Shown piece by piece: positions 3,048 to 33,200 of a DNA stretch of 36,374 nt. Each line of letters begins with the position of its first letter. Within the stretch, counting starts at the first letter, position 1. Under the pieces are notes generated by a model. The model was given only the letters and a program-made list of their open reading frames with translations. It searched no databases and was not told the DNA's origin. The stretch covers positions 1-36,374 of the forward strand of contig QPGO01000378.1 in assembly GCA_008632985.1 (NCBI GenBank), in the 5' to 3' direction. Both the position numbers and the translations under genes were made by a program. The DNA comes from Psammoneis japonica (Eukaryota).

Positions 3048-3584
3048 ATGAAACTTTTCCTACCTACCCTCTTGCTCCTTCCTACTCTTGACGCCGAAGC
3101 TTTCGGTCTGGGACGCAGTCTCTTTACACACCCCTTGACTGTTTACCAGCCGGGTACGCTTTTCCGTGATGTTTCCTTGGACAGGCATTTACCCAACACG
3201 TCGCCGCGGTATGAAATTACCGATACCAAGGACGAGTTTCAACTCCGCGTGGACGTTCCCGGTGTCAAATCTTCCGAGATCCAAGTGAATGTCGAGAACG
3301 ACATGCTCTCTTTGAGAGGCGAACGTAAGGAAGAGAAGGAAAACTACAAGTTCTCCTCGAGCTTTTTCCAGAGTTTCAGTCTTGATCCATCCGTGGAGCA
3401 AGAAAAAATCACGGCCAAACTTGTAGACGGAGTTCTCACCGTGACGGCACCCAAGGACCCCAAGAAGGTTGACGAAATGATTCAGCGCATCCCCGTCACG
3501 GAGGAAGTGGAGGAAATTCCCGTCAATGTTGCCAAGCCCAAGGAGGACGTCAAGGATGAATCCAAAGAAACTGTCAAGGCTTAA
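3048..3584 (+). CDS. HSP20: Small heat-shock protein (HSP20), probably plastid-targeted
   Basis: ATG 3048 gives MKLFLPTLLLLPTLDAEA-FG (signal + Phe). Motifs VDVPGVKSSEIQVNVENDMLSLRGER and ITAKLVDGVLTVTAPK; clear paralog of 366-967. Confidence 0.92.
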   Translation: MKLFLPTLLLLPTLDAEAFGLGRSLFTHPLTVYQPGTLFRDVSLDRHLPNTSPRYEITDTKDEFQLRVDVPGVKSSEIQVNVENDMLSLRGERKEEKENYKFSSSFFQSFSLDPSVEQEKITAKLVDGVLTVTAPKDPKKVDEMIQRIPVTEEVEEIPVNVAKPKEDVKDESKETVKA

Positions 3585-4054: not shown

Positions 4055-4350
4055 AAGCGAGAAAAACCAAAACGGCCAAACTCTGGACGGAGTAAGTCAC
4101 CGTGGCGACTCCCAAGGATCCCAAGAAGGCCGAAGAAATGATTCAGCGCACACCAATAGACAGCAGTAGAGTATAGTCCTGTCAATCCCAAACGTCAAGA
4201 AGGAATCTGAAAAAGGCTTTCCCGTATGACCAAAGTGACTATTGCGCTGTTGGTAGAGCGATCGGGCACCGCAGTAGATCCAACTTACAATTTTTATAGA
4301 GCATTCATTTTCCACTAAACTAAAAACGACGCCTAAAAGCTTATAGCTAG
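4055..4350 (+). pseudogene. Decayed, internally deleted duplicate of the 3' end and downstream flank of the second HSP20
   Basis: Collinear matches: acggccaaac 4072-4081 vs 3411-3420; cccaagga(t/c)cccaagaagg 4111-4129 vs 3450-3468; gaaatgattcagcgca 4135-4150 vs 3474-3489; taaactaaaaacgacgc 4316-4332 vs 3790-3806. Confidence 0.8.
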
Positions 4351-7000: not shown

Positions 7001-7146
7001 AAAATTGGAAGTTGGATTGAGGTTTATTCATGATCGAATACAAAATTAAAGTTACGTCTGGACGTTGTACGGTTTCGTATCGTGGCGTCGCAATTACTGT
7101 AGAATTATCGCGAAAAGGTCATCATGCTTTTCGGCCTAATTTTTTT

Positions 7147-7154
7147 TTTCCCGC
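7147..7154 (+). promoter_or_regulatory. Second E2F-like site (TTTCCCGC) in the CDC45 / proteasome divergent intergenic region
   Basis: Exact match to the plant E2F consensus TTTCCCGC. Confidence 0.45.
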
Positions 7155-7254
7155 ATTTTCAATTTTCTGCGGCGACGACATGGCGCAATAAGAAGCTCCG
7201 TTTTCCAGCGTTGTTATTCGTTTAGAGAGCCAGTCGCCCTCTCTCTTATACATC

Positions 7255-8201
7255 ATGTCCATAATGTACAACACCTACAGAAAAACGGCACTGTTTGTTT
7301 TATTGCTGTTTGCCTCCTTTCCCTCTGCAGCACTTGCATCATCGGTCGCTGGGCAGAAACGTTGGTGGGCGTGGTGGGTCGCGACTTTGTCATGCTGGGA
7401 GCCGACTCGTCCATGAGTCAAAGCATTGCACTTCAATCCTCCAATCTCGATAAAATTGCCGTTTGGTGGATCCCATGGTGGAAGAAACAAATAATAATCG
7501 ACGACAACAAACAATTCTAGCTGCGGCAGCCGGGGATGCCGCAGACGCGGACCGATTGGTGGGACTGTTAAAGGCCTATGCCGCCATTGCGGAATACGAA
7601 GCGGGTATTGGATGTGATGTTGAAGTTATTCAGTTGGGGACGGAAAAGAATAGTCATGTTGCTGCTTCACCAGCTGGCCTGACCATTTCACAAGTGGCGC
7701 ACATGGCTCGTGGTCAAATTGCAACGGCGCTACGATCTCCAACACCCTACAAGGTTTGTTTGCTTGTGGCTGGCATGTCGACGACAAAAAGCGTCAAGGA
7801 TGATGAATGGAAAACAGAAAAGGAGGAAGCAGACCATCAGTTTCTCTCACAACAGTTGCAACTCCAAGTTCAAAAAGCGTTAGAGACAGAAACCGACGGA
7901 ATCAAACGATGGAGAAACAAGGACATCTAGTGCTTTGGAGCCTCGCTTGTATTGGTTGGACGAATATGGATCTGTGCAAAAGCTCAAGTACGGTGCACAT
8001 GGCTACGGATCAAACTTTTGTCTTTCTATATTAGATCGGAGATTCAAACCCAATCTTAGTCGACAGGAAGCGGAGGAATTGATTCGAGATTGCTTTGATC
8101 AGTTGCGGACTCGCTATGTCATTAATTCGCCACAACCGCCGTGTATCAAGTGTGTGGATGCAAGTGGATTCCAATTATTGACTAGTGATGGTGTAGCATG
8201 A
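7255..8201 (+). CDS. PSMB2: 20S proteasome beta type-2-like subunit with N-terminal signal peptide (putative periplastidal/symbiont-specific copy); apparent frameshifts at ~7352, ~7463, ~7890
   Basis: Reconstructed MSIMYNTYRKTALFVLLLFASFPSAALA-SSVAGAETLVGVVGRDFVMLGADSS...DKI, then AAGDAAD, LRSPTPYKVCLLVAG, PRLYWLDEYGS, AHGYGSNFCLSILDR, CFDQLRTRYVIN. These are the beta-2/PRE1 motifs. Confidence 0.85.
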
Positions 8202-8479
8202 CGGCGGTTTTAAAAAGTTAAATGCAGTCGAATTGAGAACGTCCTACAAGCTACACGGCTACCTTGAATGGCTGATAAATCTATTATTGGCGGGATGTGC
8301 CCGTCGGCTTAGAAAAGCTGTTTATGTCACGCGTTTCTTTCAACGGACTTTTTACTTTTGGAGAAGCTTCCGTACCAGTACCAGTGTCTCTACTTGCAGC
8401 GTTTCAACACATGCGTTGCGTTTCGTATTTTGCCCGACGGAGTACTACACAACGCGTGTCGACCGCTTTATCCGGCTTT

Positions 8480-8700: not shown

Positions 8701-8893
8701 CCTGAAACGTTATGAGAAGACTACTTTCCCGTCAAGACTAACAGTCACTCTTCGCTTAAGCCCATCTCAATAGGTTAGAAAGGATGCCGCATGTGATATA
8801 TCTTGTAACTAGCTAAAACTTAGTGATATACTACACATTCGACAAACCAAAATTTGTACTTCAAAAGCGGAACCAGCCAAAGCCACGGGTTCT

Positions 8894-9980
8894 TCATTCC
8901 TCAGAGTCGGCAGTTGAGTTCGCAGTCGTCGCCGTGGATGAGCTTCCAGCCGCCGTGGATGCACTGGCATTACCAGCCGCAATGACAGCACCATCGCTGG
9001 CCCCATCGCCTCTACTAGTGCTTCCACCAGCATTGTTTCCATCGTCCCGGGACCGGTCCGTTGTCAAATCCGAAGGAATCTTGGTGCTATCGCCAGCGTA
9101 ACCAATGCTGACGGGGATCAAAGAACGAAGACGGTCGTTGATAAGAGACATCATGTCTCCCCATTGGGCCTGAGGAAGTTGAATGAAGCGCTCCAAAACG
9201 GCATCATCGGCGGGTTCCACGGAAAAGAAACGGTACAGGTGACGAAGGGAATCAATGGTCACTTCTTCCCTATCACAGTGAAGGAGACAGCCTAGGAATG
9301 CATTGCGCTTTGAAGCGTCTTGACCAAAGCTTTCCACCAAGCCCTCGAGAAGCGCTTCGCTTTCTTCTCCTGGTAAAATCGCAACGGCAAAAAACAAAGA
9401 AACCACGGTTGAGCACGGAAGCAACGTGGACTGTGGCTGGCGCATTGTTTTTTGAGCACAGCAGCACTTACTCTCACTCTGGCGATTGTCCTGCATGATG
9501 ATGGATGAAATAACAAGCAAGTTATCAGTTGATAGAGGCAGTGACGGCTATCGACAACGATTCGTAGAGATTTTGAAAATGACAACAGATTTGAAAGCGC
9601 GGGTCAAACGGCTGATCGGTACAATCCATCGTTCATTCTACATACGTGACATCTGCGTAAGCTGTACTACACCTTGGTTTCGACTGCGGAAAGAACAATG
9701 AAAACGATAGAGCGTCTCCAATCATCATGCGACGTGCAATTTCAACACCCACACACGTCCTTCTACGTTGCAAGTGTGCTTGTTGTAACGAGCGCGTGTA
9801 AAGATCCTTGGCTGTATCGCCGCCGACACTTACTCCAACATTCGAGACTTTCACCGTGGAAGCGTCCGTTCGACACGAAAAGGAATCGTCATCGTTTTCA
9901 TGCCTCACTCTCCTCCATGACCTCTGGAATTGAAATCCACTTGCAACCGGGAGGCTACTCTGCTGAACAGCTGAACTCAT
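8894..9980 (-). CDS. Hypothetical protein; 3' part well supported (8894-~9370), 5' exon structure uncertain
   Basis: ORF 8894-9520 has a globular segment and an S/A/G-rich tail. Candidate intron gtaagt..ttttaccag at ~9371-9471. Upstream ATG ORF 9633-9980 is on the same strand. No family recognised. Confidence 0.5.
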
Positions 9981-10157
9981 ATTGGTAGTGGAGGATGGTC
10001 AACTCGTGACGGAATTATAAAGCATCAACACCCGCAAAACATCGTGTCGTTGTTGCTACCGTGTTGTTGCGTTGGTTTCAGGTCTTTCCGTGATCGCTGT
10101 TCTTCGCGCGAAAAATGTGCGCGATAATTGGTCGTCTGGGTCAGGGTCAGCCCCCCC

Positions 10158-10342
10158 TCTACGGTACCTCTCTACCATACTCTCTACTCTCTAGAGCTAG
10201 AGAGTAGGAACTAGAGTAGCTAGAGAGTAGAAGTAGCTACTCTCTACTCTAGCTAGAGCTAGGAGCTAGTAGCTACCCGGTAGGGCTACCGGTACACTCT
10301 CTAGTAGCTAGCTCTCTCTACTACAAGTACGAGTACAGTATG
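10158..10342. repeat. Low-complexity CTAG/CTAC/GTAG/AGAG-rich tract
   Basis: ctctactctctagagctagagagtaggaactagagtagctagagagtagaagtagctactctctactctagctagagctagg...; extremely TpA-rich with self-complementary words. Confidence 0.85.
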
Positions 10343-10583
10343 GTATTGGCAGAAGTATCCATGCTTCCATGTGCAAGGGAGACTGCCAATCGTTAAGGAT
10401 GACAAGAAAGAGAACGCAAGAGCAGCACTCCAATAGAGTTTGGGTGATTGTTGTTGTAAAGACGACAAGACCACATCAAACGTTTTTTGCGCGGGATAAT
10501 TGACGCCACCCGCCGATGTCGATGACTTCAGCAACGTATCGTTTTGCTCCTTTTGTCATGTAAAGTATTTCAATTGAGTCGAC

Positions 10584-10834
10584 GCACATGGTGTTGGATC
10601 AAACTTTTATCTTTCCACACTGGATCGGAGATTCAAGCCCAGATTGCTTTTATGAGTTGCAGACTCGCCATGTCATTTTATTCTCCACAAACCGCCATTC
10701 ATCAAATGTGTGTGGATGCAAGTTGATTCTGCTTGTTTACCAGTGATGATGCAGCATGATAACGGGTTCAAACGAGTTTAGAATCAGTCGCATTGAGAAT
10801 GTCCGACAAGCTGCAACGTTACCTCGAGAATGGC
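10584..10834 (+). pseudogene. Diverged partial duplicate of the proteasome beta gene 3' end and 3' flank (parent 7995-8272)
   Basis: Alignable over ~250 bp (ggatcaaacttt, gatcggagattcaa, gactcgc, tgtgtggatgcaagt, cagtcg.attgagaa) with a ~35 bp deletion and many TA->CA/TG substitutions. Confidence 0.9.
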
Positions 10835-11052
10835 AGCATTCTGCTCACGTACTGTAGTAGTCACCGCAATTACAGGATGGCGTGCGCTTATTGGACTGCT
10901 CTCTACCGGGAGTTTTGTCCGGTGAGACTGCCTATCATTGTGACCTCTTCAGATGGTGTGGCAATTTGGAAGTCGAAGCTCTACCGTACATAGCAGGAAA
11001 TATGGAATTCGAATATGCAGAGCTATTCCAGTTCTCAACAACTAAGTTTATT

Positions 11053-11717
11053 TCATTCTATTTGAGCTTGACTGTTGAATGCAAAGACAGCTTCTTCAAC
11101 ACCCTGACTAAATCGTTTGGATTCAATCCTTCCCGCTGCATGGATATCGTTGAACGGATTCAACATGTACTCCACGTAGAGACCGTGAATGGTTTCCAAA
11201 AGCTCCTTGATTTCAGAATCCTTTGCCATTTGCAATTGTGTCTGATCCGGCAAGACATCATCGTGAACTACCACCAGGAACTTTATTCTTGTGTTGTCAT
11301 GTATCCTGAAACAAAAATATTGCAAAAATAGCATGGATAAGTCTTTACAATACAAAAAGCTCAAACAGCAGTGCTCTCGCTCATGCGCGCAATGACCAAC
11401 ATACCATAGACTCTCATTTCGTCCACCGGACACAAGAGTCCCACCCACATGGCGTCTGTTCCGGTAACGCCCGTGGTTCTCCACCCCACTCCCGGCGGTG
11501 GACCTGCTAATTCATCGAATCGATCCAACGCGGAATGCAATACGAATTGTTGCTGTAGCGAACATGATGAGGAGTCGCTTGTTACTTCGCGGTTGCTGTT
11601 GCTTTCATGCTTATTGAAACCAAACAAATCTTCGTCCTCATTACTTGCTTGAGTGAACTCCTTGAGAAAGAGAGGCTTATTGTCCTTGCCGACAAGGGCG
11701 ATACTTTGAATCGACAT
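11053..11717 (-). CDS. TRAPPC2L: TRAPP complex subunit 2-like (sedlin family); intron 11306-11404; apparent -1 frameshift at ~11291
   Basis: MSIQSIALVGKDNKPLFLK...QFVLHSALD...MWVGLLCPVDEMRVYG|YMTTTRIKFLVV...IKELLETIHGLYVEYMLNPF...I.SKRF, the sedlin/TRAPPC2L signature. Intron GTATGT..TTTCAG. Confidence 0.9.
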
Positions 11718-13871: not shown

Positions 13872-15600
13872 CGAGTATTGGGGCGCAAGTTCGCTACGAT
13901 GGTTCAAGCGGCGCTCAGATGACGACTGAAATGACTATGAGTAGCTAATGTAGCTCCTATGGTTTCGCCATTTGAATACAGGGGACGACCTGAACAAGTT
14001 TCAAATCCCGGTTCTATGAAGGCGGGTCGTTTTTGACCTGCAGCACGTGAACCAGGTGGCCTGGCGTCTAATGCCTGTCTAACAAAATATCGTACATATA
14101 GAAAGTGGAACCGTTTTTTTATAGCCCCCCCTACTGTAACTATTGTTTGAGAGCATTCTGACAGGTTATGTCGCTCTCCAAATCAAAATGGACACACAAC
14201 AGGTGGTCTTTCATTCAGCATGTGACCCATCAGATATGGAGTGCCTCGAGCCAAATTTGAAACAACTTGGTCCTCACCATGCGTCAACCGACATGCATGG
14301 GGAACGCCTTTGGAGTGTCAGGTCCAAAAAACCTCCACCTGGTGATGCATTTTGGGTTTTCCCAGCAAATGATCCACACTCAAATTTGAAATTCCAGATG
14401 CTTGGATTGATGGACTGGCTCAGTGCAAGTTCTACAAAAGATTCTTTGGACCGGGTGGGTCTAAAGACATCCCCAGGAAGTTGTGGCATGACCCATGACA
14501 GAGGAAGCCCATCCCTTGCTTTGCTTCATGTCTCTTCCTTCCTTTCAGCAGCATTCAAGCAAACAGGCTGCCAGTGCAGCAGCCACTGAGGACCAGAATG
14601 AAGTCAACCTGCCCACGTGGCTGCAAATGACTCAAATGGGGTGATGAGGAGTGAGTCACCTCCTTCCAAAAGACAAGATGCAGAAAAAAATGAGGCATCA
14701 TCACCTGCCACAGAGGAACCACAAGGGACATCTGGAAGCACTCCAGAGAAAAGCAGAAGAACAAGAGGCAGAAGAAAATGTGGAAGCTCCAAAAGATTGC
14801 ACCAAAAAAGTCATAACTCAAGAGACCACATTTCACAAGGAGGAGTTTGCATGCCCTTCTTGTGACACTGAAGGAGGAACACATTTTCTCCTTCAAGGAG
14901 GGTTGACCACAGGTCATGCACACACATGAAAGTTTGGTTGTGCAGCTGAATGTTCCTCATTGATGCCAGAAAAAATTGTGAAAAACTCAGCTGGGTGTCG
15001 TTTCACAAATCCTTTTGCCACATCTGATTGGCAAAGCTGCCAGCAGCTGAACAGCTCTGGCTGCCAATGCAAAATTCTGTTGGCTGTGAGGACAACAAAG
15101 AAGCTGGTGTGATTGGCAAAAGAAGATCATGCAGCATCCTTCTTGTGCAGAGCAGCTCTCTGTGTTCCAAGAAGACAGTTTGTTGCAGGGAGACCTGGTG
15201 CATTGGCACAGTGCTTTTAAACTGGTGCATGTGCTGCCTTGGAAGCCATTGTTTTGGTCTTCGTCTTGGTGGAATCTCTCACCATTTAGAGATGGCTCCA
15301 CCAACATGTCCAAGGCCCCAAGAAGCAAAGCCGTGAGGTTCACGTTGCACTTGGCAAAGCACAAGAGGAAGCTGGTGTGTGTTCTTCTTAGCAGATGAGA
15401 CAGAGATGATGAAGGCAAACGGCCGTGCTCTTTTTTCAACAAAGATGCATCAGATTGCATTGACTGTTGCTGGTTCCATGACACAAATCCCAGGAAAGTT
15501 TTTGCACTTCACACTCCACAAATGTGGCAACACATTTTGGTCATGGTTGCACATGCATCAGATGAAAGCTGACCTTTGTTGCAAGAACAAGCAATGCAAA

Positions 15601-15914
15601 TGAGGTGCGAGTGTGAATCTGATTGCCCAGAAAATGAGTGCAAACTTCATGAAAATTGAACATTCTGCACAACCAAAAAATTGGCATTGCAAAAGATTGG
15701 GAAAATGGAAAGCAGTGCATGCAGCAGACTTGAGAGTTGCACCGCCATCATGACTGCAATTGCCATTCCAAACACTCACAGCTTTTGACCACCATGAGGC
15801 TCTGACTGGACACGGCTGATGTGATGAGCTGTGCACAGTGAGGTGCGAGTGCAAGTCTGATTGCCCAGAAAATGTGCAAACATGATAAACATTGAACATT
15901 CTGCACAACTAAAA
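15601..15914 (+). repeat. ~75 bp imperfect direct repeat (15601-15678 and 15839-15914)
   Basis: tgaggtgcgagtg..tctgattgcccagaaaatg..gtgcaaac..attgaacattctgcacaac occurs twice. Confidence 0.85.
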
Positions 15915-16009
15915 GATCGCTCTAGTTGGCTCTGAAACAGATTTCATTTTAAGACAACCCCAGTCTGTGGAAAGAATGACTCGCCAGGTCCATCGTCTTG
16001 CTGACCACC

Positions 16010-16700
16010 TCACTTTTCTTTGTTGGTTGTCAATTTCTGAGCAAGATCTTCAACTGCGGGAGTCACCCAGTCTTCTTGATTCTTGACATCATGAACTCTC
16101 TGCATGTCGAGTGCAACAGCCTTGATTTGACTGTTGACATGACACACGCCCACATTCCGCCAAGCTGCATCACCACGACGAAAGCCATCACCTGCGAAGT
16201 CCTTCACCAATGTCTGCCTTGCCGCATCCAAAGTTGACAGAGTCCTTTCCGGAGACTGAAACCAGGGCATCAACAAGGCTGTTTGGCCCTTGTCTTGTAC
16301 AACCCGAATGGTTTTGGGTGCTGGTGGAAGATGTGAGTGCACAGCTTTCCACATTTCCTCTTCATGCTTTGCCTTCAGATCAGACTCTTGGAAAAAAAAC
16401 TTCAAAACTCCAACAGCTCCCTTTGTGCCACCCAACACAAGGAAAACTCCACCATCAGCACCACGCCCAAGATCTTCCCACAGAAAAAAATTCTTGACAG
16501 TGCCTGAAATGCACAAATCAAAGTTCAAACTGCTTTGTGGTGGAGCCTTTTTCCAAGCAGAGCTCTTTTCATTGGCCAAGCACAGCACCATCATTGCACC
16601 TTCTTGCTTGGCAAGCATCATCTTTTTCACAACAGATGCAAACACAACTGCACCTGCCACGCCAGTTTGAAGTTGCTCAAGGCCTGGGTCTCACAGCAGT
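16010..16700 (-). pseudogene. Degenerate protein-kinase-like gene (Crinkler-type / DUF5898-like family, tentative)
   Basis: Gly-loop DLGRGADGGVFLV, VGVLKFF, HEEEMW, ALLMPWF, catalytic-loop-like GDAAWRNVG, VALDM. Homologous to 31608-32231. Family name is from recall only. Confidence 0.6.
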
Positions 16701-18082
16701 GTGTCGTGCATCATGGCTTGGGGGCACTGGAGCATGCTTCGGGCAACTTGGCACAATCACTCCATCCAAAAATGCTTTGTCAGGTCCCCTTCTCTGAATT
16801 CAAGCACAAGTCCTGTCATTCCCAGAAGCCCTTTCTCTTCTCTTTTGATTGCTTGTGGGTGCTGCATTGGGCACACTTCTTTTTTCAATGCAAGGTGGCT
16901 TGTTGCACTCCACCAGTTTCCCAAGGTGTGCTTGAGCAGGGTGAGCTCTTTTTCCACTTTCTCAGTGCTCTCAATGCATTTGATGGTGGAGTTGCAGAAG
17001 ATGCTCACATTGTTGTTGTTGTTTTTGGAAAGAACAGTTTTCATTGTGTGAAATCTGCAACTTGCTCTGCAATGCCATGTTGACAACACATGTGTGCAGG
17101 TGCTTCGTGCGCATGGATTGGGACAAGACTAAAAGAAAGGTTGCAACATCATGCCACTGTTTCTAAAAGTGAGATCTAAACCTGAGGAACTGCTCGGTGC
17201 CCAATCGCCAATGACAAAGCATGCCAAACTAACTTGAATTGATCACAGGGTAAATTCTTCAGTCTCCTCAAGTCGATGAATTGGACAATGTCAGAAATCT
17301 CTTTTTGCATTTGCCAACAGAACATCTGGTCAGAAATGCAAAATTCTTGACTGTGATGATGAAGCTGGTGTTGTCATGTTGGTTTTTTGAGCAGCAGATG
17401 TTCTCAGCACACCTGCAGCTGCAGCCGCCCCAGAGATCGTGCATCACTTTGACATGGAACAGCTCTCTGTGCTCCAAAATGACACAGTTTGTTTTTGAGG
17501 AAACCTGGCATCCTGGCAGCTGTGCACCATTCAAACCATCACAGAAGCCGCGGCCTCCTTTGCCAGGAGCCCGCACAACTGATGACACAGAAAATCAACA
17601 GGAGTGCAGGTGCTGCTTGCCTGTTGTTGCTTTGGCAGACATGGATGAGATGCACTGTGTCTGTTGGAGAACAAACTGTTTGATGATGAAGTGTGGGAAT
17701 TGTCTGGTGAGGCATTTTCTCTGTGTTTCTGGCGGCGCCAAAAGAGCTTCTGGAGCATGCCAGATTGGTGGCCCAAATGTGCTCTTGTGTGACACCAAAT
17801 TCATGGATGTTTGAAATGCAGGTTGGCTGGTCATGACATGCGGACATGCAAGTGCAAAGGTTGTGCAATGATGGCCTGAACAAAGAACATGGGAAAAGAT
17901 GTTGTGCATTTTGTTAAAAACTCTGCAGGTTTCACATGAACAAACATTTCATCAGACACATCTTTTCACTGAATTGCCGGATTTCACTTGAACTTGTGTG
18001 TGGAAGTCATTGTCTGATTTTGGTGACATCACAGAGGGCTTTTTGTCTCATTGCTCCTGAACTGATGTTCACAGGAAAGAAG

Positions 18083-18265
18083 ACTTGTGCAGACTTGTTG
18101 TGCTGGGTTGCACGAACTTGCACGAACTTGCATGGACTTTTTCACACTCAGGTGATTTGGTCACAAAAGCATGCACAAACTTGCATGAAAAACATGTGCC
18201 AACCTGCGCGAACTTGCTTGAGCTTGTGTGGGCTTGCGCAGATCACTTGCACAAACTTTTGCATG
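18083..18265 (+). repeat. Degenerate 10-bp tandem repeat (ttgcacgaac-like)
   Basis: ttgcacgaac ttgcacgaac ttgcatggac ... atgcacaaac ttgcatgaaa ... ctgcgcgaac ttgcttgagc ttgtgtgggc ttgcgcagat. Confidence 0.7.
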
Positions 18266-20303
18266 ACATTGCCCACCATGGCTGCTGTCATCATCACATT
18301 CGGTGACTGGCCACATTGAAGAAGGACATTTGATCAACAAATGAAATCCAGCAACTGATGAAGTGCAAAAACTTAGACATTTTCATTGTTTGAAGGAGAC
18401 GATGTCACTCGTTGTCACCCGGCAAGTGACAACAAGAACAACAAACAACAGTTGCCAGTTGACATGTGTGCTTTCATCATCTTGGTGTCAACTCCACATG
18501 CAATCATGAAAAATTGAGTGACAGCATTTGTTGCATTCTTGTTTTGAGCAAGAAAGCATTTGCCAAAATGATGCACATGTTTGAAAGTTCGTGCTCCTAA
18601 TTTCACACACACAAGCAGCCAAAAGCCAAGAGTGTGGCTTCAGCATTGCCACTTCTGATAGAGCTGGTCACAATGTGTTGTTTCTGACATTGACAAGGAA
18701 GCTGGTTTCTTTGTGGCCCATGTTCAATTGAAGCCTGTGCAGGCCCTGGGGATCTCCTCAAAGAAGTTTCTTTTTCAGACAGCGCAGAGACACATGACCA
18801 CCAAAGGTGGGGGGCACTTGCTGTTTTTGCAGTCATGAACAAAAACGTCTGCTTGCACATGTTTTTTGCTTTGTTGATGGTGAAGATGGGCATGATTGGG
18901 GAGCCTCACTCTGTGCCTTGGTCACCCCATTTCCAGAGCTTGGCGTTTGACGCAACATGGCAGAATCTTTTGAAAAATCATGCACCTTCGAGGGACGGGC
19001 AGGCTCTCTGTTTTTTGGAGCAAGTCGGGAGCAGGAATGGCCCATCTCACTTGGAAGCACACATTTTGCTCTCCAGGGGAGGGGGGGCTTGCTGCAATCA
19101 TGCTTGTCATCAGGTGAAAGATGCCAAGACAGACCCATGCTTCTGCTGAAGTGGAAGAAAGCCCCTCTTCTTCAATGTCAGAAATCACAAAAAAAGACTG
19201 AGCTGGGCTCTGTTTCACAACTTCTCTTGCATCTGATTGACAAAGCCACCAACAGCTTGCCTGGTCACAAGCAAAACATTCTTGACTCTGTGTGGGAGTT
19301 GGCAGCATTGCCAGGTTTGTCTGTGGTTTTGGGCATGTTCTCAGCAATGTTCTTGTGGCTGGCTGCAACCCTGGAGCCAATTCAGTGCCTTGCCATGGAG
19401 CAGCTCCATGTGTTCCAAGAGTGCAGCTTGTTTTCACAGAAACATGACATCCCATGCATCATTGCTTCAAGTCAGCATGGTTTGCCACTGGCCGCCATCA
19501 CACCAAAATGGTGAGGAAACCAGGGGACGAGGCACCAGCAGCTCACGCAAAGAAACATCCAACAGCGTTGGACCAGGCACTTCATGACAGAGTGAGTGTC
19601 AACGGGAATGTGGGCACCACCACTTGCCCACAGTTGCTTTGACTGGTGTGAATGAGACATGCTGTGTCTGATGAAACATGCAGGTGGGATGTTGTTTTCT
19701 GTCTGCCCTCTCACAAAGAAGTCAGAAGCGCAACCACCAAGTGCAGGAGCTTTGGCACCGCCATTCCCAATGGAGTTGGGCAACATGCTGTTTCCAATTT
19801 GAAAAGGAAATTGGTTTCTTTGTCACCTGTGTGATCAAAGCCTGTGCACATCTCTGCCCCCAAAGTGTTCTCAAGGTTTTGCATCGCCACACATGCCAGC
19901 ACCACATGACCATGAGAGAGGAGGAGGACAGCGTGCCCCCAGAGACACCAAAGGTGGAATCCACTCACTGTTTGTGATCATCCACATTGTTTCTGTTCCC
20001 AAACATTCTTCACTTTCTCAATGCCGAAGATGGGCATGACTGGGGAGTTGGACTGCACGCCCTTGTTCTCGAAGTACGACAGTGCAGCTTGGCAGCTTGG
20101 CACTTGAAAAACCACGCACCTCCGCCCGATGATGTTTCGGCGATTGAGTCGTCGGGAACGGCCCATCACCTGGACAATGTTGTGACATACTGTAGTAGCC
20201 GTTCAGAGAGAAGCCACGTAGAAATAGTACTGCAACGAAAGTAGAGCGTCCGTCCGTTGCGTCGTTCACGCAAAGATCCCCAAGATCGCGAAAAACCACG
20301 CAC

Positions 20304-21057: not shown

Positions 21058-21182
21058 CATGGCGAAGACACAACACAGATGATGTCAAGGAATGCATGCG
21101 TCGATAAGTTGCACCGCGTCATTGCTATTGTAAATTGCCAAACGTTAACTGCCTGTAGAGACGGCCTGTGGTAAGAAGTAAA

Positions 21183-24100
21183 ATGAGCGGGTTGAACGCG
21201 TCGCAAGCAGACTTTGCCAAGCTACGGCAACATGTCCTTCAGTTTCTCAAAGAGCTTCGACGAGGCGACTTGTACGTATATGGGTTTGAAGCAGACGACT
21301 TTGATCATCTACTTGATTCGGACGGGAATGCTCCGCCTCTACAAGAAAAGACACATGTGTTTAATCGACTCTTGTTGGCGGTGGCACGAGAGCTTTCCGC
21401 TGGAAGCACGAGAAAGCGAAAACTAATCCTTGAGCAACTTTATTCGAACCTTGACGACTGGGTGGAAGCAATTAAAAACTTTGACGACAAGGCAGTCAAG
21501 AGCGAAACAGATGACGAATATCGAGGTACGTCAACTGCAAGTAGACAAGAACTTAAAACGGCAGAGGAAATTGATGCTGACACAAAGCTGGAAAAGAAAA
21601 TCGAAAAAGAGTCGACGAAATCTCGAGAAGAAAGCCTTCCCGAGACGCAGGATGAGATTGTGGATGTTTCTAAGGAAAAATCTGATGAAGTGAAGGTGAA
21701 ATCTATACCCAGAAAGAAAAGCAAAAAGAGAAAGTCAGAAGAAAAATCTGGAGAAGAAAGCCTTCCTGAGAAGCACAAAGAGCCTTTGGGTGTGAACGCG
21801 GAAGACGATGACCTAGAAAAGGTGAGATCTAAACCCAAGAAGAAAACCAAGAAGAGAAAACCAACTTCAGCTAATAATATCGAGGAGGAGGTGAGAACCC
21901 AATCGAAAAAGAAGAGCAAGAAGAGAAAATCAGCTGAAACCTTTGGAACTGAAACCGAAGACAATATCGAGGAGGTGAGATCGAAACCGAAAAAGAAGAG
22001 CAATAAGAAGAGAAAGTCAGCTGAACCATCTGGAGCTGAAAGCATTCCTGAAAAGCATGAAACGTCCTTGGATATGCAACTGGAAGACAGTGACGAAGCG
22101 AACACGATATCTAAACCTAAAAAGAAAATCAAGAAGAAAAAATCAGCGGAGAAGACTGGAAGAGAAAGCCTAGGTGAGAACCGTGACGAGAAGCCTTTCG
22201 ATTTGAACGTGGAAGAAAGCGACGAAGAGGAGTCTGCAGCAATACCCAGAAAGAAAAATGGCAAACAAAGATCACGTTCGGTCGAGAAAAAAGGGAACAA
22301 TCACGACGGAACAGAACAGCAAGCTGAACCACCCGAGCAAGAGGACCTAGCAAATGTCAGTCCTTCTGTCATTGCCAAAAGAGAAATCATGAAAAAAGAA
22401 TTCGAACAAGAAAAGGAGAGGATCATGTCTGGAATACCGGATGATGTGCGTTCCCAGTTTGGCCAAGTCGGATTTGCCAAGTGGTCCGGAGACTATCTTC
22501 CAGTCCTGTTTCTGAGCCCATACCATGTACCCCCTGGGGAGGTGCGCGAAAATTGGATGGCAATGTACAAGAACGTGAGTTACATACCAGCGCAACAACT
22601 CCGTCTTTCTTTTCTGAAAACTCTAAATCCTTGTCCTATTTTTATGATTTTTGCTAAACCCCAGACCAGGAACCGTAGAAGCAGCATGACGAGACTTGTT
22701 TATTGGTACGGAGAGCAAAATATGGAGGTAGCATTCTCGTTTTTGATTAAGAAGCATTGCATATCGTACGAGGAGGGGGTTCAAAAGGGCAAGCACAAGC
22801 TCAAGCGGGCTATCCAGAAAAAGGTGGACGCCGGCAAAAAGTTATCGGAAAAGGAGCAAGGCATGGTGAGAGGGTTGAAAGAAATCAATGCTGACGCCAT
22901 GAAAGACCCCAAGGATAGAAAGCTACCCTTTCCAAATTTTTTCGAGGAACACGAGGTTTTCGGACTTGAAGAAGACGAGGAAGTGGATGAAGAGCTTATC
23001 AGTAGTGATGAGGAACCGTCGCCAGTGAAGAAGAACGGATCGAAAAAAGTAGACCAAGACCTTGTTAGCAGTGACGATGAAGCACCGCCAAGAAAGAAGC
23101 TGCATAAAACATTTAAGAAAATCGACGAAGAGCTGATAAGCAGTGATGATGCATCGTCACCAAAGAAGAAGCCAGAGAAAGGATCAAGGAAAATCGACGA
23201 AGAGCTTGTGAGCAGTGATGACGAGCCGTCACCAAAGAAAGGATCGAAGAGAATCGACGAAGAGCTTGTAAGCAGTGATGACGAACCGTCACCAAAGAAA
23301 GGATCGAAGAAAGAGAACGAAGACCTTGTTAGCAGTAATGACGAAATGTCACCAAAGAAAGGACCGAAGAAAAAGAACGAAGAACTTATCAGTAGTGATG
23401 ACGAACCGTTGCCAAAGAAAGGATCGAAGAAAGAGAACGAAGATCTTATCAGCAGTGATGATGAACCGTTGCCAGAAAAACAAATGGAGAGAAAGGACGA
23501 AGAGCTTATAATTAGTGATGACGAGCCGTTGCTGGAAAAAGGATCAAAGAAAGGACCGAAAGAGCGAGATCGCGGAGACAATTCGCACGTTTCGGAAGGA
23601 CAAGACTTGGCGGAAAACGAAGTCTCATCGGGCGAGGAATACGAATATGCCGTCTCGAGCGAGGATAATGACGCTGATCAAAACTACGAACCGGAAACAA
23701 CCGCGAAAGCGAATAAGAAGAAACACGCGATTTACCGTCCAAAACTTCAAAGACGAAGCCAAAAAAGGCAAAGATTAACCGCAAGAGAAGCAAGGCAGCT
23801 ACTAAAGCCCGAGGAACAAAGGCAGATAGAATCAAGGCTGAATGGAGAAAAGAACAGCGCAAGTTCGAGGAGTGCGAAGATAAATTCCTTCCGTTGGAAG
23901 AGCGTTGGACATCGTCTCTCAAGACTGGAGACACCAGCGATCTTGCTGCGGTGATCAACGAGCTCTCTCATTTTGTCGATTCGCTGTCTCCCACATTCAT
24001 TGAGACTTACCAACTCGCTCGACTTATGAAGAAAACAAAACCAATTTTGAAGAATATGGAGACAGAGTACGGAGTGTATAAGAATGTATGGAACACAATG

Positions 24101-27450: not shown

Positions 27451-28677
27451 GATGAGTCAAACGACGAACCGTACGAGTTCTCAGTTCCTAGTCACCATAG
27501 CTATTGTAGTCGGTTTCCTTCGCAAAGTAACAGACTCATGAAGGATATAGCTTCAAAACTGGTTGAATGTGCTCACCCAGTTCATCAGCATTGACCAACA
27601 CAGCAATGTCTGCCCATGCATGGTGGTGTGGAAATGCCGCCTCTTAGACTCCACTTGTGGGGGTTGTGGGTGCACAGGCTCGTGGTGCCATGCATGGTGT
27701 GGCTCTCGGTTGCCAGTCCCTGAACTGGAGAGTGCAATTTGAAGCTTTCTCCATTGCCACAAAACAATGCTGACTGCACAAGTGCCCTTTTGTGGATGAG
27801 TCTAAATCATTGCCACTAAAAGCCATGTCAAATGGTGGCTGCACAAAGTCACACATGTGATGGGAAATCTCAAACCCATCTTCCACCTGATCTCCTTCAT
27901 CACATGAGAGAAATCACTTTGTTTTAATTCAACAACACATTTGTTGCAACATGCCCTTTGATGAGTGGATTTGCCATCAAACAAAGTTGTGATCTCATGT
28001 GTTGTTTGTGGGTGCACTTGAAGGTGTTCCTTTGTCTTGATCCATTTTTGCTTCAAACAAGAGAAGATCATTGACCAGCACATGTGAGAGTTGAATCTCT
28101 CACTCAGCTTTCAGTGCATTTCAATTCTCCCTTGAAGCATTCTGGAGCCCATGGAAAAGGTGTCCTCACCTGTCCCACTGGCAGCAACAATGTGTTTTCA
28201 TGTTGCAGTTGTTTTGACATGGTGCACATTCTTGTTTGAGCTCCTCCACACAACATCCCAACTCCCTGCACCCCACAGCCCACACCAGCAGCCCCACATG
28301 CCTGCCCAAAACTCTGAAAATTGATGGTCGATGTTGTTGCAGCTGCTTGCAGCGGACACAAGAACCAAGCCCAACTTGGACTTTGTGGACCCGGTGGAAC
28401 TCAAAGAAGACACCAGCAGGTGAAGCATCCTGCTTGAAATGTTCCTTCTCACAATGGAGGTTGTCCATGCCCTTGTTGAAGCACAAATGTTGGGCAATCT
28501 TGACCTGGGAGGTTGCAAGATCATGCCAAAGGGCATTTTCAGTGGCAGCCAAGGAAAGTGCCCTCCATGGAGCTGGGGCACAACTCAGCGCAGCAGTGGA
28601 TGGGTTTGTGAACCCAAACATGACAACCAATCACAGCCTTCACAGTGGCAAAGGCAATGTGGGCTGTGCCTTGATCC

Positions 28678-30500
28678 ATGGACACAACAGAGGCAGCAGC
28701 ACCTCTGCAAGACATGCTGGTGGCTGCAGTGAGCAATGCAGGCCCAGATGAGTCAGCACATGACACCATGACAAGTTTGTCAACATGTGCCAATGTGGGG
28801 TTGGCATTTGGTGCTGCAAGGGGCACTGCTGCCAGAGTGGTCACATGCGGCACAGCCTTGGATGCAACAGGCACAGCCATGCCTGCAGAAGACATGCTTG
28901 CATGTCCACAGCAGTCAATGCAGGTTCCAACAAGGAACCATGTGCCACCATGACAAGATTGTCAGTGGCACGGACTGATGAAGGAGTTGCGCTCTTTGTC
29001 AAATGGGGCACAAGCACTTGGTCAGTCACATGCTGCACATTTTTGGATGCATGAGATGTGAGAACATCTCCACAATGCCTGCTTGGTGTTGCACATGGCA
29101 GCACAGGACTTGACGGGTTGGTGCACAAGTCCATGACAAGGTCAGATGTGGGCAGCAATGGGGAGGGAAGATTTGTTGAAGAGCCTCAAGGTCAGCAAAC
29201 AACACTCTAAGGACCTTGACAAGCTCAGCGAGGTGCTCAAGGAGAACCTTGATCACCTGCAAGTCCATGAGTGTGGTTGCATTGACACCAAGTTTTGTGT
29301 TTTTGATTCTCACATCATTTCTTCTCAAATCATGCATTGTGCACACACAGAAGTTGGCAGTTAGCCATGGTGGCACAAGTGGAGAAAGAGAAGCCATCGA
29401 GGGTGTCTCTGCCTTTTTGAACAGTGATGATGAGCACCGCCAAGAGCTTGCATGTGAGCCCAAAAGCACAACCATGATTTGTGCACATTCTTTGCCAACA
29501 AAAAGGACAATGCCAAGGCACCTTGCATTCATGGCATTGCCCCGTGAACAAGAAAAAGAAGCAAGCTGAGATTGTGCTTCAAGGGATGGCAAATGTGTCA
29601 CTCAAGAATGCCTGGTGAGATTGGTCCAGCAACTTCAAAGCAGCATGGAAGGGCAAGAGTCTGATGAGGAGTCTCTAAAACAGGAAAAGGTTGAGCAGTG
29701 GGGGCACTCTTGCAGAGTCCAATTCATTCTTCTTGTGTGACAGAGACAGGAGTCAAATCCTGACACTGATGCAGAAAAGAATGATGATGTCATCAACAGC
29801 GCCTTTTTGTGCCAGGGCTTGATCCAAGTCCTTCTTGGCTCTTGAAAGAGCAAGATGAGGCCCATTGACAAGATTGTTCAGGAAGACATCAAGCCGCTTG
29901 TGCAACTGGGTTTCTGGCAAGTCTTGCATGAGTTGAAAAAAATCAAAGTCATTGTCTGCTTTCTAACCAAGATTGCAGATTGTGCATCAGTGGTCACTCA
30001 TTGGGTGGTGTGATTGCAACACTGTTTGGATTCTGCATGGCTGCAGATCCAGACCTTGCCAAAGAAGGGCCCATCATGGTTTGCACATTTGCAGTGCCTC
30101 GTGTCAGTGATGCTGCCTTTCATGAAGGTGCCTTTTTGTCCTGGACTGAGATTTCAAGCATGCAAGTGCAGGGGAGTTGCACCTCTCATGCTTGACTTTT
30201 TTCTCTTTTGCAGTCCCTCAACTGCCCTGGCCAGCCGGACTTCACAAACATGATGGCATGGAGGTGCGACTTTGAAAGGATGGACCTCCCGTTGTGGATT
30301 GTCCAGTCAAATGCTCTTGGCAACAATCTGGCTCAGGGGTCATGAAAAGCATTGCCTCAATGCCACAAGCCTTGATGTGTCATTCCTGCAAAGAAATGCT
30401 GAAACGATTCAAGAAGTCCAAGGACGCTTTTCTCAAATCGACACTGGAGCACAAATGCCGTTCCATGAGCGGAATTTTAACGTGTCGAGAAGACGGACCC
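28678..30500 (+). pseudogene. Class-3 lipase (Lipase_3, alpha/beta hydrolase) pseudogene
   Basis: CISGHSLGGVIATLFGFC...VCTFAVPRVSDAAF (GHSLGG nucleophile elbow; the family has YTFxxPRVG). At ~29525-29595, CIHGIA.VNKKKKQAEIVLQGM matches the family's YGI.VN...KR..VVFRG(S/T). Multiple stops and frameshifts; ends approximate. Confidence 0.8.
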
Positions 30501-30533
30501 AAAAGAATGCACTGTTGACACTAAAAACATCAA

Positions 30534-31031
30534 CCCTTCAACCACCAGGGGAGCAAATCTCCACGGGTGGAGATTTGCTCTGCTTGAGGATTTGTGGTGT
30601 GTCATGCACTTTTACAACAACACAATGTGCACAGCACAAAAATGTCATGCCACGTAGAATCTGCGTAAAGTGTGCCACGTGCATTTGCTTGTTGGGAGCA
30701 AATCTCCACCGGTGGAGATTTGCTCAAAGGGTGTGGTGTTAAAGCTCTGTTTGAGACAGCAATTCATGATGACCTCCATTGTCATAGGTTGAGATTTAGT
30801 TCCTCTCTATCCACAGATGCAGCTTGCAAAAAACCCGGTGTTAAAAGTCGACATTGAACTTTCTAAATTAAAAAAAGGGTTCCCCCAGGTTCTTGGCGAA
30901 TGCACATTCCAAAACAAAATCGCGCGAACAAAATGTCACTCACATCTGAAATTACTTGTTTTGCTGTGTTTGTGATGCAAGGGAGCAAATCTCCACCCAT
31001 GGAGATTTGCTCAAGTCCGGTGGTTGAAGGG
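30534..31031. mobile_element. Non-autonomous piggyBac-like MITE (~500 bp) with TCAA flanks and three internal 30-bp palindromes
   Basis: TIRs CCCTTCAACCACC (30534-30546) and GGTGGTTGAAGGG (31019-31031). TCAA flanks both ends (30530-30533, 31032-31035). GAGCAAATCTCCAC-NN-RTGGAGATTTGCTC occurs at 30551-30580, 30696-30725 and 30983-31012. Confidence 0.8.
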
Positions 31032-31607
31032 TCAAGAGTGCTTGTGTGTTCACGATTGGCGCTCACAAGCTCTCGCGCCAGGCCAAATCAAATCGTGTGA
31101 AAAGTGGGAAATTGGGAGCTGGTGGCTGTCCTTTCAGTGATTTGCACAATCGTTGTGTGCTGGAGTGCACTGAGGAAACATTCCAATTGGGCTGCGCACG
31201 CTGCAGGCCAAATGAGTTCTTGTGCAAAGCCTGTGCGTGCTTGCAAGTGCAACTTGCGGCTTCCACACAGAAGTGAGGAGAGCCCCAAACACACTTTTTC
31301 TCAATTGAGACTTCCTGAATGGAGTCTGACTCCATTGAGTGCAGCACACAGAAGCTTTTACAACCTCGCTGTTTTGCCGTTCATGGGGATTGCAAAGACT
31401 GCAAAGCGAGTGAATTGCATTTACAAGAAAATGACAAATGTCCATGCTGGAAGGCACAGGGAAGCAACACGAAGTGAAACAATGCAATTCTACAATCTAA
31501 GAGAGCACCTCCACAGAGACAGTCTTCTAGCTGAAGAGCATGCTTCTCTCATCATGAACAATGCAGCCTTTGCTGGCGGCTCCACACTTGCACAGCATCG
31601 TCCTCAC

Positions 31608-33200
31608 CTACGACCCCTCCACAAAAGGCAACTTCTCAGAGTCACATGGGACTTCCTGGGCATTGAGAGGTTTGCTCTCTTGTTGGACTTCCCGTGGAGC
31701 ACGATCTTCTAATTTGCGGCAGCGCTCCTCCACAAACGAATCATTTTCCGCCTGCTCCAAGTTGCCAAGATCACAAAGGACGCAATTTTCCTTGTGGGTC
31801 CCGATGTGATGCCATCGGATGTCCTCCTCTTTGTGCTTCAATCGCTTTGCATGGAACACATCCTTTAGCACCTTCCTGATGTCGGGCAGCTGATCCCTGC
31901 AGCCACTGGCACTCGTTGCCATGGGTTCAAATGACGGCATTTTGACACAGCAAAAGCCAAAGACATTTGTGACTTCCACCTCATCTGCTAAAAATGGGTG
32001 GAAATCGCAAAGCAGCTTCGCCTCATGCAAAGTTGCACCTTCTGCCTTCTCCTTGAACTCGTTCCATCCCACAGTGTCACCTGTGGTGACGTCTGCATTG
32101 TTGACATGCACCTTCAATGCGACTTGCTTGCCACTCAAATCCAACGCATGGAAGATGTTAGAGGTTGTGCCATGTCCAACGATCCCGATGACATGGAATG
32201 CTGCATCATCATCTTTGTCCACCAGCTGCACTTTGGAGCTCGTTGAGAGAGCAGCATCTCTGGGTCAACTTTTCCGGCTCTCCATCTTGTCACCTGGTCT
32301 GACAAACAGATCCCCCCACAGGCATTTCTTCACTGCAGTTTTCGATGTGGCCGAGGAGCTTTTGTTCAGCACTCGCAGCACTTTTGGAAAGCAGCAGTTT
32401 CCATTGGACTTGAGCTTCAACATGCTCCGCATGGACTCTCTGCAACTCTTCTTAGCAATTCTCAGAGCAGTGCAGACAAGCTTTGCAAGCTCATGAGACT
32501 CGAGCTCCTTGGATTGCAACATCTCTCGGCCTCCAGTTCCCTTTGTGAATAAATTCCTGAAATCCGCCCCACTGGCGTTCGAACCCGGGGATGAGTCGCA
32601 GGAGACGGGTGGCACCATGGGCAGTTCCGCATTCTCCCAGGACAAGTTGGACTGCCGGGGCGGCGACGATTGCGGTTGATTGCGATCTTGCTTGATGATT
32701 GTGGCTGCGGGCTGGCAGGTGCTTCTTCTCCATCTCTTCCATCATTTGTTTCTTCATCGAACTTAAGTTCTTCCAGAGAGCATGGAATGGACTTCTCAAA
32801 TGCAGTGAGAAGGACGAGCCCATTTCCTTCTTGTCCAAACACATCATCAGAGTGCACGAAATGTTAAAAATGTGCAGATTTGCATGATGACAATTTGTCA
32901 AAATGTTGCAAAACATTGTTGTCATGTGATGAAAGGCCAACCTCTGGTTGCAAGTCAGCTGTGCCAATGTTGCAACAACTCACCAAGAATCATGCATGCC
33001 ATTTTTCACTGCACCCACATCACTGTGTCTGCCTCCACCTTGTTGCCACATGCCAATGCGTGATTGCATTTCCACACAATCCTTGGTTTGTTGATTTTCG
33101 CAAACATTGTTTTAAACGAGAAGAGCATTTCGTCGGTTGGGTCAATCCCTTGTTGCATCTGCAGTGCAATGACCGAGTGCCATGTAAACTGTGCACACAT
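31608..33200 (-). pseudogene. Degenerate protein-kinase-like gene (same family as 16010-16700)
   Basis: VIGIVGHGTTSNIFHAL...VALKVHV...HEAKLL...VKMPSFEP...EEDIRWHHIG..CVLCDLG, with upstream fragments in other frames (SHELAKLVCTAL, FPKVLRV). The 5' limit is approximate. Confidence 0.65.

Follow-up and report, generated by a model that had tools for sequence, protein, structure and literature searches.

Contig QPGO01000378.1 of the diatom Psammoneis japonica (assembly GCA_008632985.1) contains two long blocks almost emptied of TpA dinucleotides and, outside these blocks, a short decayed duplicate of a proteasome gene that lies 2.3 kb from its functional parent. This arrangement raises the question of whether the process that depleted the blocks also acted on a piece of a host housekeeping gene, in which direction it changed the sequence, and how the parent and the adjoining DNA came to be spared. 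We examined this question in the whole stretch of 36,374 nucleotides analysed here (referred to as the window).

The duplicate at 10584-10834 reproduces 7995-8272 on the same strand in degenerate form, with 81% identity, a 35-bp deletion, frameshifts, and an in-frame stop codon. A preliminary description of this DNA had proposed its origin from the proteasome-gene segment, and blastn, MAFFT, and global alignment agree on it. Two collinear blocks were recovered by blastn, one pairing 7995-8052 with 10584-10641 (82.8% over 58 bp, E = 1.6e-11) and the other pairing 8087-8272 with 10641-10834 (77.3% over 194 bp, E = 2.5e-34). The alignment was built in two ways (MAFFT and global pairwise) with concordant results and comprises 243 aligned bases with 46 mismatches (27 transitions and 19 transversions) and five small insertions in the copy relative to the parent. 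The parent segment (plus strand) covers the final 68 codons of a proteasome beta-4 gene of the PSMB2/Pre1 type together with its stop codon and 71 bp of its 3'UTR, and it has 16 TpA (observed/expected 0.73). The stop codon TGA (8199-8201, plus strand; ORF 7884-8201) divides the constrained coding part of the duplicated segment from its neutral UTR part. Identification of the parent as the proteasome beta-4 subunit gene (PSMB2/Pre1) is based on a match of its ORF (7884-8198) to Pfam PF00227 (E = 3e-12) and on its best solved-structure matches, namely beta type-2, beta4, and yeast beta type-4 chains (residues 113-190, E from 8e-17 to 1e-8). Since the stretch of the parent that is absent from the copy (8053-8087, plus strand, 35 bp) is not a multiple of three, the copy is frameshifted; it is a non-coding pseudogene fragment on the plus strand that is truncated at its 5' end, in which G95 is replaced by TGA and seven TpA are found (observed/expected 0.36). 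Its neighbours are an unannotated minus-strand ORF region on one side and the 3' end of a Sedlin-like gene on the other. The copy was reproduced with 0 differences over 10188-10993 in the contigs of a public run, as was the parent segment up to 8203; these contigs derive from the same sample and are probably the source of the assembly, so they do not represent an independent confirmation. In these contigs of one sample, word depth was similar for the copy and the parent (~58-60), and neither the copy nor the part of the parent that was duplicated contained variants. It may be that a closer paralogue elsewhere in the genome was the true source of the copy.

The formal alignment and rate test that the preliminary description had recommended put substitution at TpA above the background divergence of the copy. 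Thirteen of the 15 aligned parental TpA were changed, compared with 67/221 for other dinucleotides (Fisher p = 2.1e-5); when mismatch positions were permuted, the TpA excess had p = 2-3e-5 on both alignments, and p was still ~3e-4 after correction for 16 dinucleotides. At these 15 sites the copy reads CA in seven cases and TG in three (that is, seven T to C and three A to G transitions), carries transversions in three, and has kept TpA in two. All eight sequence examples quoted in the preliminary description were found in the alignment, and its estimate that about 9 of 15 parental TpA had become CA or TG was slightly surpassed by the actual count of 10/15. The reverse pattern (CA or TG in the parent and TA in the copy) occurred in a single case, and this asymmetry of 10 vs 1 has a binomial p of 0.012. 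For A/T to G/C transitions, sites in TpA context were affected in 10/30 cases and other A/T sites in 5/107 (odds ratio 10.2, p = 9e-5). The TpA-context excess was observed among silent sites (5/7 vs 2/33, p = 6e-4) as well as among replacement sites (3/13 vs 1/43, p = 0.035), but in the UTR, in which change is free in either lineage, it did not reach significance (2/10 vs 2/29). GC-biased gene conversion was rejected as an explanation, given that no excess of A/T to G/C changes exists at sites other than TpA (5/107). CpG changes, also mentioned in the preliminary description, were counted as well: four of the 12 parental CpG read TG or CA in the copy, compared with 6/81 transitions at other G/C sites (p = 0.023), and there was no case in the reverse direction (CpG in the copy and TG or CA in the parent). 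As a whole, the copy has observed/expected ratios of 0.36 for TA, 1.70 for CA, and 1.44 for TG. Two of its seven TpA are ancestral, and the other five are new and un-erased, implying that the process has not acted continuously at a high rate and providing a hint that exposure of the copy was episodic. A rough hand estimate of burst-wise against continuous action gave a fit of these five new TpA to both.

A pairwise comparison is blind to direction, as loss of TA in the copy looks the same as gain of TA from CA or TG in the parent, which is the direction of repeat-induced point mutation (RIP). Polarisation was based on an alignment of 120 diatom orthologues (diatoms being all of the named ones among those listed) and covers replacement changes only. 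Residue 49 is Ile in 97 and Thr in one of these orthologues, residue 78 is Tyr in 108 and Phe in 12, and the copy is derived at both of these conserved positions. I49T (ATA to ACA) and Y78H (TAT to CAT) are therefore TpA to CpA changes on the lineage of the copy. The parental residue at R75, N81, C87, G95, and Q73 is present in 111 to 119 of the 120 orthologues, and R75Q, N81Y, C87F, G95stop, and Q73E are thus placed on the same lineage; even the lone reverse case, C46Y, is derived in the copy (Tyr in 0/120 orthologues). The remaining changes include five silent ones (8027, 8033, 8144, 8177, and 8183), two in the UTR (8211 and 8253), and one in the tail of the protein, V104A, which lies in an unalignable region that has no counterpart in 104/120 orthologues. 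At the silent and UTR sites the orthologues are too distant to polarise the changes, even the nearest relatives found sharing only 73-77% protein identity. Therefore, the idea that the duplicate records the direction of mutation directly, and the proposal to polarise it with orthologues from related diatoms, held for the replacement changes I49T and Y78H and did not extend to the silent, UTR, and tail changes, which we assign to the copy by inference. Several observations bear on this assignment. TA sites at which only replacement changes are possible were hit in 2/3 cases, similar to the other twelve (8/12), which counts toward loss in the copy. Outside TpA and CpG, differences amount to 8/86 at replacement sites, 5/49 at silent sites, and 10/51 in the UTR; silent sites are no more divergent than replacement sites, and the UTR is twice as divergent, implying that the parent lineage added little at silent sites. 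In addition, it is the copy (TpA 0.36) and not the parent (0.73) that is compositionally odd, with genic 250-bp bins ranging from 0.17 to 1.25. We consider it likely that most of the ten changes were losses in the copy.

The effect is confined to the copy. Observed/expected TpA is 2.06 at 10084-10333, 0.57 at 10334-10583, 0.36 in the copy, and 0.92 at 10835-11055, and the intergenic flanks of both the copy and the parent (0.57, 0.92, 0.91, and 2.06) are not TA-poor. Erasure of the strength found in the copy would need an impossible ancestral TpA density in the flanks, which implies that the effect ends within tens of bases of the ends of the copy. Its downstream limit is marked by the flank at 10835-11055 (15 TpA), which extends up to the 3' end of the minus-strand Sedlin-like gene. 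The upstream limit is marked by a CTAG-rich, partly palindromic dispersed repeat at 10160-10345, 240 bp upstream of the copy, which is un-erased (31 TpA in the region 10084-10333). In the contigs, word depth over this repeat is raised ~5-fold and loose ends are numerous, which indicates that the repeat is multi-copy. Repetition alone is thus not sufficient for targeting, because a multi-copy, TA-rich repeat at such a short distance was left untouched. Spread from a neighbouring heterochromatic repeat was examined as a source of the effect and rejected, as both 10334-10583 and the repeat itself keep TpA.

The observation of the preliminary description that the copy was hit while the functional parent was spared is supported by neutral (silent and UTR) sites, at which the parent lost 0 and the copy 7 TpA (p = 0.016). 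The data restrict the two explanations it offered, duplicate-targeted mutation and selection sparing the parent, without deciding between them. In view of these neutral-site counts, it is unlikely that both copies mutated one site at a time and that selection then removed the changes from the parent. Burst-wise mutation followed by loss of the whole hit parental allele (through lethal replacements) would leave an identical pattern and may hide hits in the parent. For duplicate-targeted mutation, the duplicated copy was indeed hit, but the multi-copy repeat next to it was not.

The two large blocks show what appears to be the same signature in an advanced form. Block 1 (14240-20020) has sharp edges and observed/expected values of 0-0.22 for TpA and 0-0.57 for CpG in 250-bp bins and of 1.5-1.9 for CA/TG in 1-kb bins; block 2 (27650-36374) has a block-1-like signature that continues to the end of the window and is broken by Ns at 35067-35807. 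In the two blocks together, TpA ranges from 0 to 0.3 and CpG from 0 to 0.8 (250-bp bins), and CA/TG from 1.5 to 2.0 (1-kb bins), and the genes between them have TpA of 0.4-0.9 and CpG of about 1. Only 64 TpA are left in 12,950 bp of block sequence, scattered and strongly dependent on context. In raw counts (block/background), CTAA/TTAG (26/56) and TTAA (12/29) largely survive, and ATAT (0/60), ATAC (0/109), GTAC (1/76), CTAC (4/150), CTAG (2/56), ATAG (4/100), and ATAA (5/113) are almost gone. Such context dependence looks like the sequence preference of an enzyme. A hand count in the copy gave 8/11 TAs hit in contexts that are erased in the blocks and 2/4 in the spared TTAA/TTAG contexts, a difference in the expected direction that is not significant.

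No transposon or viral domains were detected by Pfam in the 91 stop-free ORFs of the blocks. Two remnants of other genes were recognised by Pfam, a DUF5898 remnant in block 1 (16013-16690, minus strand) and a class-3 lipase remnant in block 2 (29932-30192, plus strand; PF01764, E = 9.9e-11), and Tyr is absent from both. A word-based search for homologues of the lipase remnant found nothing, and an exhaustive HMMER scan found 99, of which 97 were compared. Tyr is the residue seen most often among these 97 homologues at four of the aligned positions (54/87, 40/96, 48/96, and 25/96), and at each of them the remnant has Cys, always encoded by TGC, implying that the block signature runs from TAC to TGC, in the same direction as in the copy. 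The signature of the blocks affects remnants of host-type genes as well. The copy carries both of its components, loss of TpA and loss of CpG, in an unsaturated form, and erasure is partial in the copy (10/15 TpA and 4/12 CpG) and near-total in the blocks; the process that acted on the copy is probably that of the blocks. According to a self-BLAST of the window, the proteasome copy is the only sizeable gene-fragment duplicate outside the blocks, besides a 96-bp HSP20 fragment. In the latter pair (the HSP20 3' end, 3397-3489 vs 4056-4150), the single parental TpA reads TG in the copy, and the pair is too small to count. A pair within block 1 (15601-15681 vs 15839-15917) was uninformative.

Our main reading of these data, to which we give a probability of roughly 0.7, is that a locally targeted mutator converting TpA to CpA or TpG acted on a silenced ectopic copy of the proteasome beta-4 3' end. 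The neighbouring gene would first have given rise to an ectopic copy, now old and dead, of its 3' end, and this copy would then have been exposed to the locally confined process that emptied the two large blocks of TpA. On either strand, this process would convert A:T to G:C at 5'-TA-3', yielding TG or CA, at a rate that in the copy would be roughly ten times that of other A/T transitions. The simplest chemistry might be deamination of an adenine that follows T (to hypoxanthine), which would be read as G at the next replication. Decay of CpG to TpG or CpA is the usual mark of cytosine methylation, and its presence alongside the TpA changes suggests that the copy may reside in silenced, CpG-methylated chromatin. 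The copy would therefore have been marked and the transcribed parent not, with the adjoining DNA unaffected. The weak points of the mutator reading are that it is built on only ten events in all and that only two of these are polarised beyond doubt.

The most serious alternative concerns direction, namely that TA was gained in the parent by GC-to-AT-biased mutation (C to T at CpA and G to A at TpG), with the copy keeping the older CA or TG and only I49T and Y78H being true losses. Eight of the ten changes are indeed silent (five), in the UTR (two), or in the unconserved tail (V104A), and the duplicated parental exon is TA-rich (11 TA in 68 codons, or 16.2 per 100, vs 9.5 in 11 other ORFs of the window; one-sided p = 0.055). 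This exon also makes use of the rare Leu codon TTA (2/8 Leu codons in the duplicated part vs 17/332 in a sample), and where a TA offers one silent and one replacement option for a transition, the silent one was taken in 5/6 cases. These signals are borderline and are such as gain of TA in the parent would give, and a GC-to-AT bias is known from the accessible text of a mutation-accumulation paper on the diatom P. tricornutum. However, eight gains would be needed in a lineage whose silent sites otherwise differ no more than its replacement sites, and intense loss of TpA in the copy would still be required by the replacement-only sites. Moreover, the window provides no other sign of TA gain, and the blocks show massive TA loss, polarised by the Tyr to Cys positions, and the TpA content of the parent falls within the range of genic bins. 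We therefore regard gain in the parent as unlikely. An untargeted version of TpA loss, in which TpA is hypermutable throughout the genome, an unconstrained fragment relaxes to a TA-poor equilibrium, and selection holds the parent, might be suggested by the moderately TpA-poor genic and intergenic DNA of the window (observed/expected mostly 0.4-0.9). Yet the intergenic flanks of the copy and the parent have not relaxed in this way, the parent has lost no TpA at its own neutral sites, and the roughly tenfold odds at TpA do not resemble a mild bias, making this explanation very unlikely.

It is also conceivable that the changes were made in RNA, if an antisense transcript paired with the 3' end of the mRNA and the resulting double-stranded RNA was A-to-I edited next to U on both strands, reverse-transcribed, and inserted in an already mutated state. 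The gene next to the proteasome gene is convergent and could be a source of antisense transcript; the copy represents a transcript 3' end that includes the UTR and is truncated at 5'; the effect is confined exactly to the copy, with the neutral sites of the parent untouched; the new, un-erased TpA would fit a single burst; and T to C and A to G changes both occur. However, ADAR is an animal enzyme, and neither poly(A), nor an A-run after 10834, nor a convincing target-site duplication was found at the copy, although decay over ~10% divergence could erase such marks. The only direct repeat that flanks the copy is 16 nt long (10379-10394 and 10924-10939, 14/16 matches) and was dismissed as evidence of an insertion unit, since a repeat of this quality is roughly what would be expected by chance in 1.3 kb. 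The CpG decay of the copy needs an in-place state at the DNA level anyway, and multi-kb, sharp-edged blocks with near-total erasure that includes host-type gene remnants are easier to produce in place. A preference of ADAR for U before the edited A, as cited in the accessible text of a preprint by Mettrop et al. (bioRxiv 10.64898/2026.01.13.699255), would agree with the TpA context, but the hypermutation described there for Bigelowiella natans arises in place in integrated DNA. Taken together, an origin of the changes by RNA editing appears quite unlikely. Finally, the substitutions might have clustered by chance in an alignment that is small and was singled out post hoc, as there are only 46 differences and the pair was chosen with the signature of the genome in mind. 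The p value of ~2e-5 (~3e-4 with correction for 16 dinucleotides), its robustness on two alignments, and the fact that self-BLAST of the window found no other sizeable gene-fragment duplicate outside the blocks besides the HSP20 fragment, whose sole TpA also reads TG, render chance extremely implausible.

If the mutator reading is true, several consequences follow. Because the ancestral sequence is held by protein function, the direction of change (loss of TA) could be read at conserved residues, which is not possible in the TpA-free blocks. The target would not have to be a virus or a transposon, a piece of a housekeeping gene being enough, which would argue against recognition by foreign composition. 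Targeting could operate on a scale no larger than 250 bp and with such sharpness that the DNA on both sides is normal again within some 20 to 50 bp. This length scale, the host origin of the target, and the direction of change would constrain models of how such a mutator is guided. The pair of copy and parent would also offer a convenient site at which to assay methylation, histone marks, small RNAs, and de novo mutations. In diatoms more widely, estimates of neutral rates, base-composition evolution, and pseudogene age would be biased if A:T to G:C mutation is driven in particular regions only. We consider the locus a useful special case: the target is part of a host gene, protein function anchors its ancestral sequence, the scale is 250 bp, and the parent, at a distance of 2.3 kb, is untouched. 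A bolder version, which we find possible but doubtful, is that diatoms have a genome-defence mutator that mirrors RIP chemically, deaminates adenine at 5'-TA-3' in DNA, and singles out ectopic host-gene fragments down to 250 bp with base-pair sharpness, sparing the transcribed parent and the TA-rich dispersed repeat nearby; it might be guided by a homology or RNA mark on non-expressed duplicates and coupled to cytosine methylation, and its trigger would be neither foreignness nor repetition.

Comparison with known systems helps to define what kind of process this may be. Like an ordinary gene-fragment pseudogene that arises as a local segmental or repair-mediated duplicate, the copy is 5'-truncated and non-coding, carries indels and a stop codon, and lies near its source; its spectrum, however, is not that of neutral decay, as TpA sites were changed at ~10 times the odds of other A/T sites. 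CpG decay of methylated DNA by deamination of 5-methylcytosine resembles what is seen at CpG, with 4/12 CpG lost in the copy and CpG of 0-0.8 in the blocks and near 1 in genes. It accounts for the CpG losses only; T to C or A to G changes at TpA are beyond its reach. RIP, which is found in Neurospora and other ascomycetes, converts C:G to T:A, mostly CpA to TpA, mutates both duplicates, and leaves the mutated DNA rich in TpA; it takes place before meiosis and depends on a DNA methyltransferase homologue of the RID type. It is alike in being a dinucleotide-specific transition hypermutation that kills duplicated DNA and in involving the same dinucleotides (TpA, CpA, and TpG). However, its direction is opposite, TpA being made by RIP and destroyed here, where the polarised changes run from TA to CA, and its chemistry concerns C:G and not A:T pairs. 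RIP also hits both copies, whereas only one was hit here, even at neutral sites (0 vs 7), and with regard to its trigger, duplication, the duplicated copy was hit here and a multi-copy repeat 240 bp away was untouched. RIP was thus rejected as the identity of the process on grounds of direction (the copy being TpA-poor and rich in CpA and TpG) and of symmetry.

With respect to diatoms themselves, a paper on their methyltransferases reports that DNMT4 enzymes, which are related to the RIP enzyme RID, are present in many diatoms with unknown function and that DNA methylation of diatom transposons has been documented; the accessible part of its text contains no mention of TpA or of dinucleotides. 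TpA is likewise never mentioned in the accessible part of the P. tricornutum mutation-accumulation paper. Our full-text literature searches found no description of a TpA-erasing process in diatoms, the closest system being that of the preprint on B. natans, a rhizarian alga. According to the accessible text of that preprint, mutation accumulation in B. natans revealed A to G and T to C hypermutation, restricted to TpA, of integrated giant-virus and virophage DNA (Mettrop et al., bioRxiv 10.64898/2026.01.13.699255). It is confined to particular regions and episodic, with only some lines mutating, and its authors propose deamination of adenine to hypoxanthine. There are several differences from the present case. 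Mutations were measured directly in B. natans, whereas here they were deduced from sequence comparison. The targets there are viral or foreign, whereas here they comprise a 250-bp fragment of a host housekeeping gene and blocks without a transposon or viral domain in their 91 ORFs. B. natans is a rhizarian and not a diatom, and diatoms are not mentioned in the accessible text of the preprint. Co-occurring CpG decay does not appear in the passages of the preprint at hand, whereas CpG has decayed in the copy, and no flanking-base preference is given in the main text as far as accessible, whereas CTAA/TTAG and TTAA were largely spared here. On the other hand, the two cases share A to G and T to C changes at TpA giving TpG and CpA, 10/13 changed TpA of the copy being altered by such transitions, together with regional confinement that leaves neighbouring DNA normal. 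The long-term footprint in B. natans, depletion of TpA with enrichment of CpA and TpG, is the one observed here, and the episodic action described there fits the un-erased new TpA of the proteasome copy.

Only 64 TpA dinucleotides remain in 12,950 bp of the two blocks in which TpA loss is saturated (14240-20020 and 27650-36374), and both blocks, whose borders are sharp, are poor in CpG as well. When all of these residual sites are counted, 26 lie in CTAA/TTAG and 12 in TTAA, whereas ATAT, ATAC/GTAT, GTAC, CTAC/GTAG, and CTAG are nearly missing in comparison with unmutated DNA elsewhere in the window. The tetranucleotide bias of the surviving TpA sites is a fingerprint of the mutator, the proposed locally targeted process that converts TpA to CpA or TpG. 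None of the 91 open reading frames (ORFs) in the blocks matched a Pfam domain of transposon or viral origin, and the Pfam search of these ORFs yielded only two gene remnants, one matching DUF5898 on the minus strand (16013-16690) and the other derived from a class-3 lipase on the plus strand (29932-30192). The lipase remnant contains no Tyr, and all four of its aligned positions at which Tyr is the most frequent residue in homologues are occupied by Cys (TGC), which is how TAC to TGC changes show at the protein level.

A CTAG-rich, partly palindromic low-complexity element with inverted repeats of 15-23 nt is located at 10160-10345, upstream of the degenerate copy of the 3' end of the proteasome beta-4 gene (10584-10834). 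Its TpA count is 31 in 250 bp, and it has been spared TpA erasure despite a distance of only 240 bp to the mutated copy. Considering that contigs from public sequencing of the same sample show approximately five times the word depth of the surroundings over this element, together with numerous loose ends, it represents a dispersed multi-copy repeat. Transversions in the copy relative to its parent (7995-8272), read on the plus strand, include seven G to T (mostly TG to TT) and one C to A; this excess, which is not significant alone, may be a signature of strand-asymmetric damage. The copy is also flanked by a 16-nt direct repeat (10379-10394 and 10924-10939, 14 of 16 positions matching), whose arms lie approximately 190 bp and 90 bp away from it and which is probably meaningless because such a repeat is near chance expectation in 1.3 kb.

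A second small gene-fragment duplicate comprises 96 bp of the HSP20 3' end (3397-3489 versus 4056-4150). The copy lies approximately 660 bp downstream of its source with 81% identity, and the lone TpA of the fragment is TG in the copy.

The public contigs differ from the window by indels of 1-3 bases at 7140, 7162, 7354, 7882, 9013-9017, 9570, and 11291, which are probably small assembly errors in the window and may account for the frameshifts that seem to split the proteasome gene into three ORF pieces (7140-7517, 7454-7927, and 7884-8198). Word depth is high and uneven at 8837-10005 (87-192 versus approximately 58), with numerous variant contigs; this region, which contains two minus-strand ORFs (8897-9547 and 9636-9998) without a Pfam match, probably represents either a gene family with multiple copies or a set of collapsed paralogues, and it retains TpA at an observed/expected ratio of 0.25-0.85 (250-bp bins). 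Another ORF without a Pfam match, of 931 codons on the plus strand (21159-23951), contains internal tandem repeats (21593-22145 and 22978-23560) and is strongly skewed, with A exceeding T (AT skew 0.28-0.43) and G exceeding C.
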